Below, piece by piece: positions 11,321-21,115 of a stretch of DNA of 32,000 nt. The stretch is taken from contig JBHLRO010000007.1 in the NCBI GenBank assembly GCA_048882505.1, positions 60,001-92,000 on the forward strand. Reading direction: 5' to 3'. The stretch is from Candidatus Thorarchaeota archaeon. Lineage in GTDB: Archaea > Asgardarchaeota > Heimdallarchaeia > Hodarchaeales > Hodarchaeaceae. The position numbers and the translations under genes are program-made. Under the pieces are notes generated by a model. That model worked only from the letters and a program-made list of their open reading frames with translations. It was not told where the DNA came from and ran no database searches. Within the stretch, counting starts at the first letter, position 1, and each line of letters starts with the position of its first letter.

Positions 11321-12547
11321 TTACATCAGCGTTTCAATTACCTCACAAAACCGATCAATTTCATCTTCAGTATTGTAATAATGAACCGATGCGCGAATAA
11401 CTGAATCTAAAGACCGAGATGCCATATCTAGTCGGGTAGCTTCCTTTGAAGATATGGAAACGTTAATATGCTTCTCATTCAATTGAATCTTTATGTCCCG
11501 TGGATCCTGGCCTCTGACGTTGAAAGAAACAATCCCGCATTTGACGATCCCAATATCGTTAAGCTCTACACTTGGTATATTTCCTAATCTTTTACGAAAT
11601 CTATAGCCAAGTTTTTGAATTCTACTCCAGATGTTTTCTAAACCCCAATTCGCCGCGTAGCTTACAGCTTCGCCTAAGGCTAGTTTTCCTCCTACAAAAG
11701 ACTCCCAGTTTTCAAAGCGTTTAGCATCTTCTCGAATACGGAATTCATGATCTGATATCCATTCAGCGGCGTGCAAATCAACAAAAGGTGGTTCAAGCTT
11801 TTCAATAAGATTTTCATTCACAAAGAGGAATCCGGTTCCTCGGGGTCCTCTGAGATATTTGCGGCCAGTAGCCGAGAGAATGTCACAACCGATCTTTTTA
11901 ACATCAATTGGCAATTGCCCGACGGACTGACATGCGTCAACAAGAAAAATTATATTGTTTTCGTTTGCTATGTGCCCAATTTTCTCTATAGGGTTCACTA
12001 ATCCACTATTGGTTGGAACATGAGTGATACTTATCAGTTTCACATCATCATCAATCATTTGCCTTAGTTCCTCAATAGAAACCTGACCAAATTCGTCATT
12101 AGGAATTACATCAATACTGGTCCCAAATCGTTTGGCAATTTGCAAATAGGCAAGAAAATTGCTCGCATACTCGGCCCTAGCGGTCAAAATTCGATCGTTT
12201 GTATTGAACGGAATTGAATAAAAGGCCATATCCCAAGCCCTTGTTGCATTCTCTATTAACGCGATTTCTATTGGACTAGCATTTATCAAAGAAGCAATAG
12301 TCTTGTAAACAGCCTCGATTTTCTTCTTTTCTCGTGATTCTGCTTCATAGCCCCCTATCGTGGCTTCAAGGTTAAGATGTCCTATCAGAGAATTTAAGAC
12401 AGGTTTAGGCATAAGGGCCGCTCCCGCGTTGTTAAAGTGGATAACATTCTCACACGCAGGTGTATCCAATCGGGCTTTTTCCACATCTATCTCTTTTGTG
12501 ACCAATCTATCACCTTCTAGCACGACTCGGTCAACTTCAAGACGCAT
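11321..12547 (-). CDS. Class V (fold type I) PLP-dependent enzyme, SufS/EgtE-like
   Basis: HFNNAGAA, DACQSVGQ, SATGRKYLRGPRGTG (PLP Lys) and IRASVHYYNT motifs. Confidence 0.9.
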   Translation of the reverse strand: MRLEVDRVVLEGDRLVTKEIDVEKARLDTPACENVIHFNNAGAALMPKPVLNSLIGHLNLEATIGGYEAESREKKKIEAVYKTIASLINASPIEIALIENATRAWDMAFYSIPFNTNDRILTARAEYASNFLAYLQIAKRFGTSIDVIPNDEFGQVSIEELRQMIDDDVKLISITHVPTNSGLVNPIEKIGHIANENNIIFLVDACQSVGQLPIDVKKIGCDILSATGRKYLRGPRGTGFLFVNENLIEKLEPPFVDLHAAEWISDHEFRIREDAKRFENWESFVGGKLALGEAVSYAANWGLENIWSRIQKLGYRFRKRLGNIPSVELNDIGIVKCGIVSFNVRGQDPRDIKIQLNEKHINVSISSKEATRLDMASRSLDSVIRASVHYYNTEDEIDRFCEVIETLM

Positions 12548-12637: not shown

Positions 12638-13513
12638 ATGAGCCAATTCGAAGAGGCAATAAATGAACAGGATGAGAGCACGGAGGAGGAAGAAGGAGAT
12701 CTTGAAGATGATTACATCCGTTTGTTTAGCAGCAAACAATCATTTTTCCTAGAGGAACCGTATGTATATCTCATCAATCCCGATTTATTTCCAGAACGCG
12801 TGTCCTATGTGAAGGATTTTAAATTAAAGGAAGTTATTCGAGACTTTTACAGTAAATTGCTGCAAGAAGGCCTCGACTTCAGGATCCTAGGGCAGGCGAT
12901 TTACAGTGCCAGCCGAATCCATAAGAAGAAAGTAAGTCTCGCTATCCAGTACGAGAAAAAACAGGAAGAGAGAATAGCAATCCGGACCAAGAGGCGCGCT
13001 TTCCAATTCAAAATTCCTCTCGAGCATTACATTACAAGAGATCTACTCGCCTTGGCGGAATCAGCCAACCCCGAGGCATTTTACGCTGAACTACTGCTCG
13101 GTCTGCAAGAGGAGGAAGAGAAGAAGAAACTAGAAAGAATTAAGGAAGAGCGAAAGAAATTAGGTGAAAAGGCAGGAGCGGAAAGACAACGCCGAAAGCT
13201 TGATCTAGCGGACTTCGAAAGCTTTGATTATGATATTGATTTAAGCAGGGTAAAGATTGAAGACATTGTAAAAGAAACCTTAACAACAATCATCAACTTG
13301 GCAAAACAGGATAAGAATAAGGAAGCGGAGTTCTCCAAGGTTGTTAGAATGATGGAGGAACGGGGACATACAGAGGAACAGAAGCGACTTACGAGGGCCC
13401 GAGTTTTGATATCGCTTTTGTATCTCTTCAGGGATGAAAAAATCACAGCTGAACAGGAATTGAACCCGCCCTATGAAATTTATATTTCTCCAACAAGGAG
13501 AGCAGAGGATTAG
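12638..13513 (+). CDS. scpA: Kleisin, ScpA family (SMC complex subunit)
   Basis: N-terminal LDFRILGQAIYSASRIHKKK resembles the ScpA N-helix; C-terminal RARVLISLLYLFRDEKITAEQELNPPYEIYI resembles the kleisin winged helix; acidic N-terminal tail. Confidence 0.8.
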   Translation: MSQFEEAINEQDESTEEEEGDLEDDYIRLFSSKQSFFLEEPYVYLINPDLFPERVSYVKDFKLKEVIRDFYSKLLQEGLDFRILGQAIYSASRIHKKKVSLAIQYEKKQEERIAIRTKRRAFQFKIPLEHYITRDLLALAESANPEAFYAELLLGLQEEEEKKKLERIKEERKKLGEKAGAERQRRKLDLADFESFDYDIDLSRVKIEDIVKETLTTIINLAKQDKNKEAEFSKVVRMMEERGHTEEQKRLTRARVLISLLYLFRDEKITAEQELNPPYEIYISPTRRAED

Positions 13514-13585
13514 GGCGTACCATTGAAAAAAAGGGAGCTAGCCGTCCCTCGCGGTTAATATGGGAGAAAGGGAGAAAATCCGCTT

Positions 13586-16024
13586 TTACATCCCGACTTG
13601 AGCCCGATTTATCTCCGTACTTTGGGCAAGAAAAGTGCCTCCAATTACGATCTTCCCCATGAGTTGTATAAAGGCCCTAGATTCGCTGGCAACTGAGATC
13701 GTTTCTCCTGAATCCTCTACAACGCCTATTATGACCTCTTCCCCATCTCGATCCGCCGCAATATTTCGCTCCACTCCAGGAAAACGAGATGGATCTACAC
13801 TTCTAACACGCACGTTAGGTTTTTGGAACAATTGTTTCAGTAAATCAGAGTGAGTCCCTGGATCTATGATTGAAACAACTTGAACTCGTTGGTGATTCTT
13901 GGTGGCCATGATACTCTCTATGGGGATTTCTTGAGGATCAGGAATCAGAAGCGTCAAACCCCCCTTCATTCTATTAAACATCTGGTTTATGTAATTAAGA
14001 GTTGCTGCTTTGGAGAAAATTGGAGCAGTCTGTACTTCTGGGCGCTTAATAGTGGTAGTGGCTGTGGAAAGTTGACGAAGACTACCTATATAGTTTTGGA
14101 ACATTTGATCTGTCTTTCTAGAGACCTCTTGGAATTTTTCCGTGAACCCAGTGAAGCCTGTTTCAAATGCTGCGATCTCCGCGTCGATACCTGTGGAAAT
14201 AAGGCTTCCTATGCTTGTGAGTGTTTGTAATGTAGCTTGAGATAGCTCATTAACCACCCCAATGGTTCTAGTTTTTAGTTCCTCTGTTTGGGCGATTATA
14301 TGTTCGCTATTCTTTATGGCGGAACTATTTAGCGCTTCTGAATATTGTTGATCATACAAAACAAACTGCTGGCGGATTTGATTCATTGTTTGGTCAATTG
14401 TTTCTTGCAGAGTGGCAATCGCTTGAGTAATATGATTCTGCGTTTCTTGATGGCGTAGTTCAACGCTTTCGGTCATACCTTGAAGAGTCGAAAGATAAAA
14501 CTCGAGAGATTCAGCCTGGGAAGCTGATAATGAAGATTTCAGCTTCGAGAACTCCTCGTTTAGGATTTGGATTTGAGGTGCCATAGAGGTTGAAAAAGAT
14601 TCAACCTGAGAATCAATTTCGCCTCTAAGGGTAGTAACTGTTGCAGAAATATCCTGTTGCGTTGTCGCTCTGAAGTCTGTCAATGTGGAATCAGTTGATT
14701 CAAGAAAGGCGCTAAAAGCCGCTGTGATTTCATCACGGGCCAATTCATTGGAGGAACGAGCTTCCTGAATGCTTTTATCGTGAAGTGATGTTGTGTCGGT
14801 TACTGCCCTCTGAACGTTCGTATCCACCTCTGAGGATATTTTTTCTGAATACTGATCGAGATTCGACTGAATCTGGTTTTGGGTTTGAGCCACAGTGCCA
14901 TCGACCTGGGTAACAATTTGAGATAGAGTTTCTTGGGCTTGGTTGATCAAAGCGTTAAGTTGGAGCTGCGTAGTTGTAAGAGTTTCTGATAATGTCTGTT
15001 TCAAAGTTTGAAGAGATTCCGAAGCCCTACCTTTGACAGAATTGCCAGCACCTGTCAAAACCTCAACTGCACTGGTTTTACTTGATTCTAATCGCTGTCG
15101 TATATTTTCGGTATTGGTGCTCAGAGAAGAACTAACCTGAGATCCACTTACCTCGTTCAGTTGTACAGCCTTTGCCTTAACACCTTCCGACACTTGAGTC
15201 AGATATGAGGATAAAGCGTTCTTTTGATCATCGATAGATTTAGCTAGAGTGTCTCCAGCTTTCGCGATGGAGGATTGGACATTTTGTATTCCTGTTGATA
15301 ATGCGGCCTGCGAACTGGATACTAATTCCTCAAGCTTGGTCGTCAGCTCGCTATTGCGAAGCGTCTCTTGTTCTTTCAAGGCCGTAAAACCTTCATTATA
15401 CTTCGATTGAAGACTGCTATTAACTTCATGAAGGTTATCGCCTATCTGTTTAGCAGATTGACTGAACTGGCTTTGAACTTGTTCTAAAACATCAGAGTGT
15501 TCGGATTGTTTGCCCTGGAAAATAGCGGTGATTTCGTTTTTCGTTTGATCCGTGGCTTGTTCAACCTCTAATGTATATCGTGCGATCCGCGCCTCGGTAT
15601 CTCCTTCTCCTTTCATTTCGGCTTGTTTAACGGCTGTCTGGGCTGCAGTTAATCCCTCGGAAATCTTTTGAGATTCTTCATTAATCTGTCCGCGAATTGC
15701 TGCCAATTTTTCTCCAATATAAGTATCCAGTTCTCCAGTAGTATCTTCAGATTCTTTAATAATTCCCTTAGCCGATGTTTCCAAATCTTTAAATGGGATG
15801 AGTGCCTGGTAACGATTAGTTATTCCTAGAACCTCTAGAACATGTCCCATCTTTTTTAGACTTTCTAATGATCTTGAAGTATCTTCGGCTGTAAATTCGG
15901 TAAGTTGGACGATCTCACCAAAACTTATTTGACCTAAAGTGAGTAATAAGGCATATATTTTGGATTCTTGAAAATCTAGATTCATTGTTCTTGCCAAATC
16001 ATCAAGTGACATTCCTTTGCACAC
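13586..16024 (-). CDS. TrmB-like wHTH + very long helical/coiled-coil rod + TrmB effector/PLD-like C-terminal domain
   Basis: ESKIYALLLTLGQISFGEIVQLTEFTAEDTSRSLESLKKMG...RYQA resembles a TrmB HTH; ~580 aa almost Pro-free S/T/Q/E/L/A-rich helix; C-terminal alpha/beta domain (LNYINQMFNRMKGGLTLLIP). Start may be ATG 16012. Confidence 0.75.
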   Translation of the reverse strand: MCKGMSLDDLARTMNLDFQESKIYALLLTLGQISFGEIVQLTEFTAEDTSRSLESLKKMGHVLEVLGITNRYQALIPFKDLETSAKGIIKESEDTTGELDTYIGEKLAAIRGQINEESQKISEGLTAAQTAVKQAEMKGEGDTEARIARYTLEVEQATDQTKNEITAIFQGKQSEHSDVLEQVQSQFSQSAKQIGDNLHEVNSSLQSKYNEGFTALKEQETLRNSELTTKLEELVSSSQAALSTGIQNVQSSIAKAGDTLAKSIDDQKNALSSYLTQVSEGVKAKAVQLNEVSGSQVSSSLSTNTENIRQRLESSKTSAVEVLTGAGNSVKGRASESLQTLKQTLSETLTTTQLQLNALINQAQETLSQIVTQVDGTVAQTQNQIQSNLDQYSEKISSEVDTNVQRAVTDTTSLHDKSIQEARSSNELARDEITAAFSAFLESTDSTLTDFRATTQQDISATVTTLRGEIDSQVESFSTSMAPQIQILNEEFSKLKSSLSASQAESLEFYLSTLQGMTESVELRHQETQNHITQAIATLQETIDQTMNQIRQQFVLYDQQYSEALNSSAIKNSEHIIAQTEELKTRTIGVVNELSQATLQTLTSIGSLISTGIDAEIAAFETGFTGFTEKFQEVSRKTDQMFQNYIGSLRQLSTATTTIKRPEVQTAPIFSKAATLNYINQMFNRMKGGLTLLIPDPQEIPIESIMATKNHQRVQVVSIIDPGTHSDLLKQLFQKPNVRVRSVDPSRFPGVERNIAADRDGEEVIIGVVEDSGETISVASESRAFIQLMGKIVIGGTFLAQSTEINRAQVGM

Positions 16025-16291
16025 TTCCTACTCTTCTGAATAGCCAAGAGCTGATGCTTTTTCCTTAAAAATTCTCCTCTTAAATGAATGCATATTCTTT
16101 GTCCTAGGAAACTTTAGAACTCTATCATGGAACCAAATGGATTCCATCCTCTAGATATTTAGCGTGGGCCAATTTACGTCTAGAACGGTCTGATCTAAAT
16201 AATCCTATCTAAGGAAAGGTTCTTCCAACCCCGAAAATATCTATGCAAGTTTTTTAAAAGATCGGTTTGCAGAATGCCATAGGTCGTAATA

Positions 16292-16855
16292 TTGGACGTT
16301 GAGAAATTAACTGAACGTAATGTTATCGAAGCAACTCTGTACCTTCTAGATAGGCCAGTGGCATATTCGGAACTCGCAGAGATTATACAGATTGAGGAGA
16401 GTGCGGTAGAAAAATATATTGAGGAACTACGGGATGAATATCTAGATCGAAAAACAGCATATACCATTGTTGATACAGAGAGAGGAAATGTGCAACTGAA
16501 ATTACGTGAGGAAGTGGCTGCACACCTTCCCTATCCGTTTGTTAAAAGATCAGAAGTGCCCCAACATTTATTGAAAATTCTCAGTTTAATAGCATTCAAA
16601 GAGTACGTCCTGGGAGAACAGGTGACACCAACCAAGTTGCAGCGGATTTTTGGCAAGAAAAAGGTAAGGGAGGACCTTGATGAGCTTTCAGCTATGTCTC
16701 TCGTCACTATCACGCTTAAAGGGAATAAGCGGGTAATCACGGTCACAGAGGAGTTCCTAGACCTATTCAAACTTCCAAAGGAAAGGGGAGAAACCAAGGA
16801 AGCGATTCAGGATGGATTACGAAATTACGCATTGAAGCAACTGCAGTACGAGTAG
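16292..16855 (+). CDS. scpB: ScpB-family KITE protein, paralogue 1 (short)
   Basis: IEATLYLLDRPVAYSELAEI, LRDEY, VQLKLR, LLKILSLIAF and VTEEFLDLFKL match the tandem winged-helix ScpB pattern; TTG start. Confidence 0.8.
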   Translation: MDVEKLTERNVIEATLYLLDRPVAYSELAEIIQIEESAVEKYIEELRDEYLDRKTAYTIVDTERGNVQLKLREEVAAHLPYPFVKRSEVPQHLLKILSLIAFKEYVLGEQVTPTKLQRIFGKKKVREDLDELSAMSLVTITLKGNKRVITVTEEFLDLFKLPKERGETKEAIQDGLRNYALKQLQYE

Positions 16856-16879
16856 GAAAGTTTACAAAAACTAGGCTTT

Positions 16880-16886
16880 GGGGTGA
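16880..16886 (+). promoter_or_regulatory. Shine-Dalgarno-like GGGGTGA
   Basis: 6 nt upstream of an in-frame ATT at 16893 that opens the scpB2 frame. Confidence 0.5.
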
Positions 16887-16892
16887 TTTATC

Positions 16893-18236
16893 ATTTTCAG
16901 GCGATTTAGACGAGGTAAAAAAGAGGACAAGAAAGAAAAAAAAACCGAGAACCAACCCGAGGTAGCCCCTCCCCGGGAGGATTATGTCGAAACGACCGGT
17001 CCCATTTCTCCACTGACGTCGTCTCTCCCTCTAGAAGAACAAGGAGTTCAAAAATTGGAGGGTTATACGGTTGAAGAAACCCCATTTGAAGAGCATTTTG
17101 ATACCCTTCCGACAGCACCCCCAACCGAAATTGCAGAGGAAATTGAACCAGAGACATCCTTACCTGAACCGAAAACTATACGTCCGTTAGATCTATCCCC
17201 TTATGTCGAGAAAATCCTTGATACTGAAGCATCGGTTGGAGGATTTGTCTCACCAGAAATGTTTATTTATAAGAAAGAGGAGGAAAAGAAGGAGGAGGAA
17301 GTTCAAGAAGAAGAAGCTCGACCCCTTGTACCGTCGTTTAAGTTACCTCCTATCACATTAGAAGAAAAGATTGAGGGAGCGATGTTTGCAGTTGGCCGTC
17401 CGATTCATGTGAGTGAACTGATCGAAAACCTACAGATAGAGTCGCCCGTAGTGAAAAGAACTCTAAGAAAGCTTCAGAGGGGACGAAAACCTACCTCCCC
17501 TATCGTTATTGATGAGATCTCCAAAGATCGTTGGGTTATGCAATTAAATCCGATGTATTATGAGCTTTTTTCTCCCCAAATGCCCGAGAGGTTTATGGAA
17601 GACGATGAACGACAAGTCATCACTGAAATTGCGTACCGTCAACCTATTTCTTTGGCATTGGTAAAAAAAATGGTTCGAGGGATCGGACCAGTTAAAGTAA
17701 ATGAAATCTGCAAACGCCTCGAATATCGCGGGCTTATTACAAGTGAAAAAAGAGCCCGTTCACTGGTATTTACGACTACTCCCTCGTTTGCAAAAGCTTT
17801 TGGGTTTGATGACGAAAGCAGGCGGCTAAAACTTCAAATGCTATGGCGACTAAAACGATTGATGGGAGATTATGATGCTGAGGAGGAGGAACAGGAAGTA
17901 GAGGAAGTAGAGGAAGTAGAAGAAGTAGAAGAGGAAGGACAGGAAGAAGAGGAGGAGGAACAGGAAGTAGAGGAAATAGAAGAGGAAGGACAGAGAGAAG
18001 AGGAGGAAGAGGAACAGGAAGGACAGGAAGTGGAAGAGGAAGGACAAGGAGAACAGGAACTTGACGATGAACTCGATGAGGAAGTTGAACGGAAACCTGA
18101 GGGGGCTACAATGGAAGTAGTACCAGAGACTGGCAACGAAGACCCTCCTGATATGCAATCAGCTCCCGTTCTAAATGAAAATAACCATAATCAAAATCCT
18201 GATCCCGAATCGGACGCCAAATCTCGTTTAGAATAG
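16893..18236 (+). CDS. scpB: ScpB-family KITE protein, paralogue 2, with disordered N-terminal arm and acidic C-terminal tail (447 aa from ATT 16893; 393 aa from TTG 17055)
   Basis: KIEGAMFAVGRPI, ITEIAYRQPIS..VRG, LEYRGLI and FTTTPSFAKAFG are ScpB hallmarks; the frame is open from 16887. Confidence 0.85.
   Translation: MFRRFRRGKKEDKKEKKTENQPEVAPPREDYVETTGPISPLTSSLPLEEQGVQKLEGYTVEETPFEEHFDTLPTAPPTEIAEEIEPETSLPEPKTIRPLDLSPYVEKILDTEASVGGFVSPEMFIYKKEEEKKEEEVQEEEARPLVPSFKLPPITLEEKIEGAMFAVGRPIHVSELIENLQIESPVVKRTLRKLQRGRKPTSPIVIDEISKDRWVMQLNPMYYELFSPQMPERFMEDDERQVITEIAYRQPISLALVKKMVRGIGPVKVNEICKRLEYRGLITSEKRARSLVFTTTPSFAKAFGFDDESRRLKLQMLWRLKRLMGDYDAEEEEQEVEEVEEVEEVEEEGQEEEEEEQEVEEIEEEGQREEEEEEQEGQEVEEEGQGEQELDDELDEEVERKPEGATMEVVPETGNEDPPDMQSAPVLNENNHNQNPDPESDAKSRLE
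17880..18089 (+). repeat. Purine-rich degenerate tandem repeats (GAGGAAGTA-type units) encoding a 70-aa Glu-rich tract
   Basis: EEEEQEVEEVEEVEEVEEEGQ... with 46 of 70 residues D/E. Confidence 0.9.
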
Positions 18237-18421: not shown

Positions 18422-21115
18422 ATGAAATACACCAATTCTTTGGTGGGATGTAACGTAATGAGAAACCTAAGATTTGTAAAATTAATGCTTATTGCTTTAT
18501 TTTTAATAACTGTATCACCAGTTTCATCTATTTTGCTAGATGTTAATCAAACACCTATTATTTTCATTGATGAACTTACAGATGATTTTACTCCAACGAT
18601 GTATGAAGGCTGGGATTACTACATACTGCCACCTGGTTCGAGTTTTCAAGATGTCTATTATTACGGAACAACAACCGATCTAACAGCCTATACTACTACT
18701 TCCCCAACAGCAAATGTTTTTGGTACAACTAGTGGTCTTACGCTAACACGAGGAAGCCCTGTTTCATCAACCCTGCTCCAAAACACCTCTCGTAATGGAA
18801 ATCATGACTTTTTTGATCCAGTTCCTTACCCAAGGGTTGTTAGAATTGATAACGGCACCCTACCCACATTTAATCAAACAATTAAAAGGCCCCTGAGCTT
18901 ACACATTGATTATGCATCAACTTTTTTCGCAGAAGGATTTGTAGAATACTGGGGATATGTCCAGATTAACGACACTATTCCTTTTCTAATGGATGTTACT
19001 TTTAGCGCAACCGATGTAGTAGGCTTATTGCTTTTTGACGATGCTTATCCTGAATCGGGGCATATTGTTGGATCGCCAGAGAATAAGATGACCTTCCCGA
19101 TTTTCCCCAAACAGGCAGGAGTCCAGAATTTCACCTTAATGACAGCCGGTTCAACCTTAGTAACCCTAACTCCACATTCGTGGGACTTTCCACCTTACCC
19201 AATACCTGAACTCAATACTAGCACATTGTTTGCTGGAGAATTGAATCAGGGGTCTCCATGGCTTTATAATGAATCCACTGATCAGTTACTCAAACAGGAT
19301 AATCCCGTATACAGCATTCGGATGTTCAATCTGTCCATAGTCCAAGATGAATTCTATCGGATTAATGCAATATTTGATATGGAAGAGGTTAAACCAGGGG
19401 TATCAAGTCCCGAACCTTTACGATTCTTGGTGGGTGAGCAATATGAATACATTTCAGGTAATATTGATCAAGATGGAATGATTATTCGAGCTCGTGAATC
19501 TGGGCACATTCTTCTCGTCTTATATTCACCTGGAGAAGCGAATGGTCAATATTCCATTTTCTATCAGAAAGAACTGCCTAGTCAACCCTTCAACACGGTT
19601 CCCCTAGAATTTGACACCCCATTATCCCCAGAATACAACGTGTTCTATACGTTTAGTTTTAGTTCTCCAGTCATGATGGGTGTAAATCGAACCGTCAGTT
19701 CTGGGACAAATAATCGATATGATTTTGAATTCTATGAGCCGGGGATTTATCCTGGTGAGTGGATTTCGGTATCAGATGACGCTTTCCTTACTATATTTGA
19801 AGGTAATTTGTTTGGTGATGCTCTGGGGGATATTGCAGGAAATTGGCAGTATATTCCTGCTGGATCATATGCCATAGAATTTACTAACATATTCGATTTC
19901 GCCGATGAAATCCAATTTACTGCTGTCCCTGTTCAGCAACCTTCAACTCTTCAGGTAAATCAGGACAGTATTTTTGCAATTGAACTCCCTCTCGTTAAAA
20001 ACCGGCTGAATTGGGTTAACCTATCAACGACAGATCAGGTCTATCCTGTCCAGCAAGTACGATACGAATGGACATTTGTGGGCAAATATAATGAGCAGAT
20101 CAGTGCAGGCACTAATTGGGATTGGTTTGGTAATGAGAATGAAACGACAAATCCTGGAGTTTGGGAAGCTTGGGATTATAATGACACTATTATTAATGCA
20201 TATCTCCCCACTCGCGATTATGAAGTACCAATATTAATGATACGGCCATTTGAGGCTTGGAATGCAACCCCAGCTCAATTGGAAACTTTTTCTGCTTCTC
20301 TGACCGTAAGTACGATCGTGGCAGCGCAGCAATCAGCCTACGACTTAAGTGCTTTAGGTGGTGTATCGCCCTTCCTGACGAATATTCCCCAAAACTACAT
20401 GTATAGTGATAGTGTTAGTGGACAACAGTATTTTATTCCGTTGTCTTCAATTAGTTCCTCAACGACTTTCCTTGTCAATGATGACTACACAACGGATGAT
20501 GACCATCTCTATGGCATCCCACTAGCCTTAGATCCCTACAGCATCTACAATATCACTGTATATCTCATTGGTAACTTTAGTACATATAATCCAGGGAACC
20601 CAAACTTCAACGAACCGGACGAATTTCTCAATGTTTCCTTCCAAGAAGAAGGTTGGAGTGATTATGAAGAAATCTACGTTCACGGGGGTAATTTACAAAG
20701 TTTAGAGATATTTGGAAGTGCAACCACCTATAACGGTGGTTTCGACAATACCAGCCAATGGCGTTCTGTTCTCATTCTCACCGTTTCTAGCATGTCTTAT
20801 CTCTTCGTCGATCTTGAACGAGAACCTGGTTCTGGTCCAGCATTGAATGGCACAATGCAGATTGTTATCCAAAAACTCAGTATAGCTGACATAGGATTCC
20901 AACTGGATTCGCAGTACAACCCAACAGTAAGCGAGCAGGAAGTTTTCACGGAAAATCCAGTAGTAAGCGATCTTATACCACCTGAACTCTATTCTATTCC
21001 AAGCACGCCTCCTTTTCCGCTGGAAGCTCTACTACTCGTTGGTGGGGTTGTGGGAGTCGGAGCTGTGGCTGCAGCAGGCGTTTATTTCGTGAGAAAAAGA
21101 AGACAAGGCTATTAG
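18422..21115 (+). CDS. Large secreted, C-terminally anchored surface (glyco)protein of unknown function
   Basis: Signal peptide MRNLRFVKLMLIALFLITVSPVSS (start probably 18458); many NxS/T sequons; C-terminal TM LLLVGGVVGVGAVAAAGVYFV followed by RKRR. Confidence 0.85.
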   Translation: MKYTNSLVGCNVMRNLRFVKLMLIALFLITVSPVSSILLDVNQTPIIFIDELTDDFTPTMYEGWDYYILPPGSSFQDVYYYGTTTDLTAYTTTSPTANVFGTTSGLTLTRGSPVSSTLLQNTSRNGNHDFFDPVPYPRVVRIDNGTLPTFNQTIKRPLSLHIDYASTFFAEGFVEYWGYVQINDTIPFLMDVTFSATDVVGLLLFDDAYPESGHIVGSPENKMTFPIFPKQAGVQNFTLMTAGSTLVTLTPHSWDFPPYPIPELNTSTLFAGELNQGSPWLYNESTDQLLKQDNPVYSIRMFNLSIVQDEFYRINAIFDMEEVKPGVSSPEPLRFLVGEQYEYISGNIDQDGMIIRARESGHILLVLYSPGEANGQYSIFYQKELPSQPFNTVPLEFDTPLSPEYNVFYTFSFSSPVMMGVNRTVSSGTNNRYDFEFYEPGIYPGEWISVSDDAFLTIFEGNLFGDALGDIAGNWQYIPAGSYAIEFTNIFDFADEIQFTAVPVQQPSTLQVNQDSIFAIELPLVKNRLNWVNLSTTDQVYPVQQVRYEWTFVGKYNEQISAGTNWDWFGNENETTNPGVWEAWDYNDTIINAYLPTRDYEVPILMIRPFEAWNATPAQLETFSASLTVSTIVAAQQSAYDLSALGGVSPFLTNIPQNYMYSDSVSGQQYFIPLSSISSSTTFLVNDDYTTDDDHLYGIPLALDPYSIYNITVYLIGNFSTYNPGNPNFNEPDEFLNVSFQEEGWSDYEEIYVHGGNLQSLEIFGSATTYNGGFDNTSQWRSVLILTVSSMSYLFVDLEREPGSGPALNGTMQIVIQKLSIADIGFQLDSQYNPTVSEQEVFTENPVVSDLIPPELYSIPSTPPFPLEALLLVGGVVGVGAVAAAGVYFVRKRRQGY

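Follow-up and report, generated by a model that had tools for sequence, protein, structure and literature searches.

Tandem ScpB paralogues and a divergent ScpA kleisin in Hodarchaeales: a candidate heterodimeric kite for an archaeal Smc complex

Can a prokaryotic SMC complex carry two different kites, the tandem winged-helix subunits associated with its kleisin, in place of two copies of one? The question is raised by a stretch of 32 000 nt from a Hodarchaeales archaeon (the window; G000:C7:60001-92000), in which one gene for a ScpA-like kleisin and two for ScpB-like kites, scpB1 and scpB2, lie between positions 12638 and 18236. Prokaryotic SMC complexes have symmetric accessory subunits, a homodimer of ScpB or of MukE, on an asymmetric kleisin; eukaryotic SMC complexes have different accessory subunits at each position, and Hodarchaeales is the archaeal order currently placed nearest eukaryotes. 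The original prediction for this locus was a possible obligate ScpB1–ScpB2 heterodimer, standing as an intermediate toward, or in parallel to, the Nse1–Nse3 arrangement of eukaryotic Smc5/6. In our analysis the locus is best explained as encoding the non-SMC subunits of the archaeon's single condensin-like Smc complex, namely one divergent ScpA and two anciently diverged ScpB (KITE) paralogues, and within this explanation we infer that the paralogues dimerise on ScpA and do so obligately. The identities of the genes and the conservation of the set across the order can be taken as secure; the analysis established what the three genes are, their operon linkage to smc in relatives, the conservation of two ScpB clades throughout the order and the presence of one hinge-bearing SMC in the genome. 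The genome analysed (G000) is a metagenome-assembled bin of 4.3 Mb in 83 contigs, 94.6 % complete with 3.7 % contamination. Relatives were drawn from a class-level sample of 81 genomes and a phylum-level sample of 201 genomes; here, f1 denotes the window's own family, f2 the sister family in the same order and f4 another Heimdallarchaeia family, with G numbers for sampled relatives and L numbers for loci extracted from them.

In order to establish what the two ScpB-like genes are, we compared both with profile and structure databases. The scpB1 gene (16292–16855, + strand) specifies a short protein of 187 aa with two winged helices, whilst the co-oriented scpB2 (+ strand, ending at 18236) specifies a much longer one, the spacing between them being ∼40–200 nt depending on the choice of ScpB2 start. 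Both exceeded the curated cut-off of PF04079 (27.4 bits), so that neither paralogue fails as a kite: ScpB1 matched at 8.6e-19 (68.1 bits; profile positions 2–152 of 160; DNA 16322–16777), and ScpB2 at 5.4e-17 (62.3 bits, or 65 where it is compared with canonical ScpB; profile positions 2–153 of 160; residues 105–253 of its 393-aa form). The latter match delimits the ScpB core of ScpB2, comprising its N- and C-terminal winged helices, at 17367–17813 on the + strand (G000:C7:77367-77813). No third PF04079 match is present in the whole genome, and a split gene was ruled out, as each of the two spans the whole profile. The original description of two adjacent, co-oriented and strongly differing ScpB-like genes was therefore accurate, including the motifs it quoted: LIAFKEYVLGEQ is present in ScpB1, whereas ScpB2 holds the canonical EIAYRQPIS (IAYRQP) motif.

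The two proteins share only ∼24 bits with each other compared with ∼57–60 bits between each and canonical ScpB, and against PF04079 they reach about half of the 100–131 bits scored by canonical ScpB. As both are nearer to canonical ScpB than to one another and score at half its level, both copies are under altered constraint. Against the NCBIfam ScpB equivalog they scored 35 and 40 bits, under its cut-off of 89.2, and are therefore divergent members. When profiles of each were searched against the PDB, the archaeal ScpB structure 6juv_A was the best match for both, at 3.5e-20 for ScpB1 (profile A3; followed by 1t6s_A at 1.5e-7 and 3w6j_B at 2.4e-5) and at 4.4e-22 for ScpB2 (profile A4; followed by 3w6j_B at 2.5e-9, 4i98_B at 1.1e-6 and 2z99_A at 1.3e-6).

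Around its core, ScpB2 is built from a basic N-terminal peptide, an arm of ∼100 aa, a conserved basic helix, LKLQMLWRLKRL, and an E-rich acidic low-complexity C-terminal tail (17862–18233, + strand). The tail is present in f1 and absent or short in f2, whose orthologues stop at or just past the basic helix. The long arms first described for this protein are thus present, but its extent needs revision. The gene probably begins not at its first canonical start, TTG 17055 (393 aa), but at ATT 16893, 37 nt past the scpB1 stop, giving 447 aa (16893–18236), because the in-frame peptide FRRFRRGKKEDKKEKK upstream of the TTG fits the conserved orthologue N-terminus, MFR(L/R/F)FRR(R/G/K)KK, and aligned relatives start with ATG at this point. 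Nine relatives have ATG as the initiator, whereas G000 and its nearest relative, G052, have ATT (window positions 16890–16898). The ATT codon could mean a reduced rate of ScpB2 translation, or a start simply overlooked by gene callers.

The kleisin was harder to recognise. No match was found in Pfam or NCBIfam for the 291-aa open reading frame at 12638–13513 (+ strand), and PF02616 (SMC_ScpA) returned nothing at E ≤ 1 for this protein, for the whole G000 genome or for 23 other genomes of the order; scpA orthologues of f4 match PF02616 weakly, with four of six over the cut-off. The identification of this gene as ScpA-like nevertheless holds, and five lines of evidence make it a divergent ScpA kleisin: a distant relative that matches PF02616, profile matches to the PDB, the modelled fold, the gene context and a cross-family hidden Markov model (HMM). 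A profile of close homologues alone (A1) found nothing relevant in the PDB, and the link to known structures appeared first when this set was extended by more distant relatives from an exhaustive representative search (profile A2). That search gave 28 representatives in all, of which a distant one, P0083, matches PF02616 at 3.5e-8. With profile A2, the N-terminal half (positions 38–152) matched the N-domain of Thermococcus onnurineus ScpA (6ivh_A, 5.8e-7), and the C-terminal part (positions 173–268) matched the C-terminal winged-helix domain of Pyrococcus ScpA (4i99_C, 3.5e-4). After removal of the three most distant rows (profile A5) these E-values weakened to 0.014 and 0.067, still the best two among 177,635 sequences.

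Structural modelling pointed in the same direction. The AlphaFold model of ScpA had a predicted local distance difference test score (pLDDT) of 52 from a shallow alignment and 76 from A2, and comprises an N-terminal helical domain (∼36–177), a conserved, low-confidence middle segment (∼119–145) and a C-terminal winged helix (∼205–286). Among 48,161 chains the modelled C-terminal domain best resembled that of Scc1 (6qpq_D/1w1w_E, Z 10.2), with Z 9.5 and 23 % identity to that of ScpA (4i99_C). In a Foldseek search with the model of pLDDT 76, kleisins made up seven of the nine top rows, including full-length Brn1 and RAD21; as the E-values were weak (0.006–0.04), we placed weight on the rank and kind of these matches together with the profile matches. 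Furthermore, an HMM of the scpA family recognises, at 1e-17 to 1e-41, the gene that directly precedes canonical scpB in each of eight other Asgard families, as well as the f4 genes picked up by PF02616. The middle segment (119–145) is invariant across the order yet modelled as disordered. We also considered whether two conserved linker motifs in ScpA might serve one kite each, and dropped the idea: in alignment, the second motif (∼185–204) coincides with the beginning of the C-terminal fragment of Pyrococcus ScpA, which makes it part of the Smc-head-binding region.

Conservation of the tandem pair extends across the order. The short gene followed by the long one was found in 19 of the 21 other f1 genomes and in both f2 genomes in addition to G000, or 21 of the 23 others of the order; the two f1 genomes that lack it are 80 % and 71 % complete. 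In none of the sampled genomes of the order was either paralogue present as a single copy, and the order of the genes is fixed in the 21 others as in G000. Among the other Asgard genomes sampled there was no tandem ScpB pair. The rule at phylum level is one canonical ScpB per genome (E 1e-28 to 1e-38), as in f4 (E about 1e-33 to 1e-35), and for three further Heimdallarchaeia families no credible PF04079 match was seen in 44 genomes, the lone match being below the cut-off. Kites would seem to have been lost repeatedly within Heimdallarchaeia.

Genomes outside Hodarchaeales with two PF04079 matches follow a different pattern. In all four that were examined (G142, G228, G150 and G208) each copy belongs to an smc locus of its own: in G142 there are two smc–scpA–scpB operons, both complete, and in the remaining three a second SMC is directly followed by a short gene of ScpB type, the scpA-family HMM detecting no kleisin. 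This separate-locus pattern fits the whole-complex duplications reported by van Hooff et al. (bioRxiv 10.1101/2024.01.07.573240), unlike the Hodarchaeales pair. In three Asgard genomes of other families (L083:4177-8393, L084:4043-8239 and L085:3546-7707), a second SMC of ∼1200 aa is followed by a short, divergent ScpB-like gene of 189–196 aa within ∼15 nt, overlapping it in one case, and the HMM picks up no kleisin there; these loci may represent SMC–kite pairs that are kleisin-less or have a cryptic kleisin.

A ScpB tree built on 178 core columns resolved the paralogues into two separate clades, with support of 100/99 for ScpB1 and 99/95 for ScpB2, each including an extra copy from G048. The clades branch in mirror image (f2 versus f1, G000 + G052, G005 + G008 and G029 + G035), and the duplication is therefore older than the split of the sampled families and not species-specific. 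ScpB1 is on the longest branch. A single clade of ScpB1 plus ScpB2 was the maximum-likelihood result of a first tree (support 29/39) and was not rejected in a second (approximately unbiased test, p-AU 0.39). The adjacency of scpB1 and scpB2 would most parsimoniously be explained by a tandem duplication in the stem lineage of the order.

The arrangement in relatives ties these genes to smc. In the f2 genomes G050 and G054 we observed a compact smc–scpA–scpB1–scpB2 operon with gaps of 3–160 nt, and an scpA orthologue lies 22–78 nt behind smc in G042, G046, G050 and G054. In G042 and G046, which are complete, single-contig genomes, smc and scpA are adjacent, with scpB1–scpB2 coming after an inserted gene. 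Placement of scpA directly upstream of scpB recurs in eight Asgard families outside the order and is common to the three compact loci of Hodarchaeales, the third of which is a scpA–scpB1–scpB2 locus on a very divergent G048 contig (L039:1465-3474, where L039 is G048:C485). The sequences of this locus end branches of 2–3 substitutions per site; it could derive from a co-binned deep relative or be a second copy in G048, and under either origin the three-gene arrangement persists at this great divergence.

In G000 the layout is looser. The two kites are indeed in tandem, but the kleisin gene does not adjoin scpB1: an 812-aa minus-strand gene (13586–16024) lies between. The absence of smc from the window was correctly noted, and we located a clear orthologue of 1201 aa on the same contig at G000:C7:771-4376, outside the window and ∼68 kb upstream of scpA, with an unrelated 220-aa gene next after it. 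This is the only hinge-bearing SMC in the assembly. Other large SMC_N-positive frames were considered as a second SMC and rejected, since one is UvrA-like, another is the Rad50 of an Mre11 cluster and the rest are ABC ATPases; the genome has no further hinge.

To gain more insight into whether the two kites pair, the complex of full-length ScpB1 with the ScpB2 core was predicted from a 14-row alignment of each. The modelling returned an interface with a score of 0.78, the best control reaching 0.00; that mark was attained for 58 of 80 solved complexes, compared with 2 of 110 mismatched pairs. Runs shared at least 65 % of contacts, and partner pLDDT was at least 69. The predicted interface joins the N-terminal winged-helix domains (nWHDs), each contributing its helix 1, the loop that follows helix 3 and the segment past the wing, which is the mode of the ScpB homodimer. 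Beside it, a position occupied by an invariant Tyr in 44 canonical ScpBs of Asgard archaea is deleted in all ScpB2 and mostly His in ScpB1, and in a descriptive comparison the interface-proximal positions have diverged in both paralogues. ScpB1 and ScpB2 probably bind each other.

The mechanism that we propose would have ScpA bridging an Smc homodimer, with the neck of one Smc bound by the N-domain of ScpA and the head of the other by its C-terminal winged helix. ScpB1 and ScpB2 would pair by way of their N-terminal winged helices, in the manner of ScpB homodimers, to place a pseudo-symmetric heterodimer on the kleisin. As the kleisin is intrinsically asymmetric, a duplicated kite may have been free to specialise for two non-equivalent positions, with ScpB2 retaining the IAYRQP motif and the C-terminal basic helix and gaining arms, and ScpB1 becoming short and more derived. 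That such a heterodimeric kite forms on the Smc–ScpA ring seems to us evenly balanced; the fuller version, in which the heterodimer is obligate and each paralogue has become adapted to its own one of two non-equivalent sites along a single ScpA, is put forward more tentatively, its chances being a little short of even. The tight linkage of scpA and scpB across Asgard archaea and the invariant, disordered middle segment of ScpA argue for binding of the pair to ScpA, and are suggestive only.

A number of observations weigh against this proposal. Six euryarchaeal ScpA–ScpB pairs, one of them direct gene neighbours, show no binding in vitro, and the bacterial ScpB-binding segment is absent from archaeal ScpAs (Jeon et al., 2020; PMC7055376). 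The N-domain of Hodarchaeal ScpA is of the short archaeal form, aligning with that of T. onnurineus (6ivh_A). In G000 itself, smc is 68 kb off and an opposite-strand gene separates scpA from scpB1, so that the set is not one transcript here. Furthermore, the score of 0.78 may echo solved ScpB homodimers; it shows likeness and does not discriminate ScpB1–ScpB2 from ScpB1–ScpB1 or ScpB2–ScpB2. Lastly, a grouping of ScpB1 with short SMC2-linked kites was likewise not rejected (p-AU 0.48), and the tree cannot settle an origin of ScpB1 by tandem duplication.

The euryarchaeal binding results and the short ScpA N-domain would also fit a reading in which ScpB1 and ScpB2 dimerise away from the kleisin, as a free winged-helix complex, probably DNA-binding and merely co-regulated with smc–scpA, leaving a binary Smc–ScpA complex. 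The predicted ScpB1–ScpB2 interface also agrees with this alternative, and the basic N-terminal peptide and conserved basic helix of ScpB2 could bind DNA. Set against it is the position of scpA immediately before scpB in the eight Asgard families and three compact Hodarchaeales loci, a linkage much tighter than in many Euryarchaeota, together with the invariance of ScpA 119–145 despite its modelled disorder, as expected of a partner-binding motif, although this last point is suggestive only. We consider a free complex unlikely, without treating it as negligible.

An assembly of separate homodimers is likewise improbable in our judgement. Under it, ScpB2 would serve the Smc complex as its ScpB and ScpB1 would have been neofunctionalised, for example as a MarR-like DNA-binding regulator or as an alternative kite in a second form of the complex. 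ScpB2 does retain IAYRQP and the C-terminal basic helix, the latter also found in f4 ScpB; the maximum-likelihood tree places it, with weak support, nearest the single-copy ScpB of the sister order; ScpB1 is the one on the longest branch, and ScpB-fold proteins resemble MarR regulators (PMC7055376). By Pfam score, however, ScpB2 is no nearer the family model than ScpB1 (65 and 68 bits versus 100–131 for canonical ScpB), and it lacks the Tyr that canonical ScpB keeps invariant beside the dimer interface. Neither gene ever occurs alone, their order does not vary in the 21 other genomes, and it is a hetero-interface that the modelling predicted with confidence. Finally, although a bin of 83 contigs with 3.7 % contamination could in principle harbour an artefact, an origin in a split gene, a recent species-specific duplication, contamination or a fault of assembly or binning is so improbable as to be set aside, given the same tandem pair in 21 other genomes of two families (three of them single-contig), the mere ∼24 bits shared by the copies, the full PF04079 span of each and the two separate clades.

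Returning to a heterodimeric kite on one ScpA, we compared it with known SMC systems. Bacterial Smc-ScpAB (Bacillus subtilis; G. stearothermophilus 3W6J; S. pneumoniae 4I98) follows the plan proposed here: its Smc homodimer is joined by a single ScpA, whose N-terminal domain is helical and whose C-terminal domain is a winged helix, and by two kites of ScpB fold, paired through their nWHDs. The gene order smc/scpA/scpB is shared, and the ScpB1 and ScpB2 profiles both match 3w6j_B, that of ScpB2 also matching 4i98_B. In contrast, the bacterial kites are two copies of one gene, whereas in Hodarchaeales there are two genes sharing ∼24 bits, one with long extra arms, and the Hodarchaeal kleisin is beyond the reach of PF02616, its middle region being of the short archaeal type and not of the type by which bacterial ScpA binds ScpB. 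For each of the three proteins, the nearest relatives of solved structure come from the euryarchaeal system of Smc–ScpA and free ScpB (P. yayanosii 6JUV, T. onnurineus 6IVH; PMC7055376). The original prediction had taken euryarchaeal Smc-ScpAB to use a ScpB homodimer; archaeal ScpB does still homodimerise through the nWHD, the interface predicted here for ScpB1–ScpB2, but its incorporation with ScpA is called into question by the six pairs that fail to bind in vitro (PMC7055376). That system has one scpB, often distant from scpA, and no detected ScpA–ScpB binding, whereas Hodarchaeales in their ancestral arrangement have two paralogues directly behind scpA.

The likeness to eukaryotic Smc5/6 lies in the architecture proposed for Hodarchaeales, that is, two different tandem-winged-helix kites as a heterodimer on one kleisin, as with Nse1–Nse3 on Nse4. 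It does not extend to the proteins themselves: neither Nse1 (PF07574) nor MAGE (PF01454) was listed for ScpB1 or ScpB2 at E ≤ 1, the two sequences lack a Cys/His-rich (RING) segment, and the SMC partner is a single condensin-like Smc rather than an Smc5/6-like pair. Whole-genome searches with the MAGE and Nse1 profiles also gave no match, but control genomes were equally silent, making these searches uninformative. In the kite phylogeny of van Hooff et al. (bioRxiv 10.1101/2024.01.07.573240), Nse1 and Nse3 descend from an archaeal clade of their own, termed 'Nse1/3-like'. As such, the notion of an intermediate toward Nse1/Nse3 finds no support, and as both kites are ScpB-like and that phylogeny roots Nse1/3 in another archaeal kite clade, a parallel to Nse1–Nse3, with neither intermediate standing nor ancestry, is the tenable wording as judged from sequence.

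The possibility that duplicated archaeal kites had already been reported was raised at the outset, and in part this is so. Whole-complex SMC duplications in Asgard and TACK archaea have given several kite paralogues in Asgard genomes, Hodarchaeales included, where multiple kites are assigned to different SMC5/6-like complexes (bioRxiv 10.1101/2024.01.07.573240). There, however, each paralogue has its own SMC and kleisin, whereas the pair described here has one kleisin and one smc, and Supplementary Table 3 of the same study gives a single ScpB-like kite per Hodarchaeales genome. In our literature search, the coverage of which was incomplete, we found no description of tandem ScpB paralogues.

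With regard to neighbouring genes, the 812-aa protein encoded between scpA and scpB1 (13586–16024, − strand, divergent from scpB1) has a TrmB-like winged helix-turn-helix N-terminus (PF01978, 7e-4 over residues 13–75), a helical rod of ∼580 aa with apolipoprotein-like helical repeats and a C-terminal globular domain. A TrmB-like rod gene of ∼800 aa also lies between scpA and scpB1 in G042 and G046, is beside scpB1 in 14 f1 genomes including G000, and is absent from the compact f2 operons and from L039. It is an f1-specific insertion with no demonstrated part in the Smc complex; from where it lies, a function in chromatin or in regulation, connected with the Smc genes, may be suspected. Upstream of scpA is a class-V aminotransferase gene (11321–12547, − strand). 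Downstream of scpB2, small Ras/Rab-like GTPase genes follow directly in relatives (L041:5439-6428, L042:4913-5971 and L043:10318-11631), with a KaiC/RecA-like gene also present in f2; G000 instead has a gene for an 897-aa secreted or membrane protein (18422–21115, + strand).

These findings draw attention to a kite counted once per genome here in the most thorough survey published, and bear on whether ScpB belongs to the Smc complex of archaea in the first place. The order-wide ScpB pair offers a natural and experimentally tractable case in which to ask how a symmetric kite turns asymmetric, and what role each kite position plays. If the proposed heterodimer is correct, no earlier prokaryotic SMC complex would have had two unlike kites, and it would mean that the transition of SMC accessory subunits from homomer to heteromer, a eukaryotic hallmark, occurred independently in the archaeal order closest to eukaryotes.

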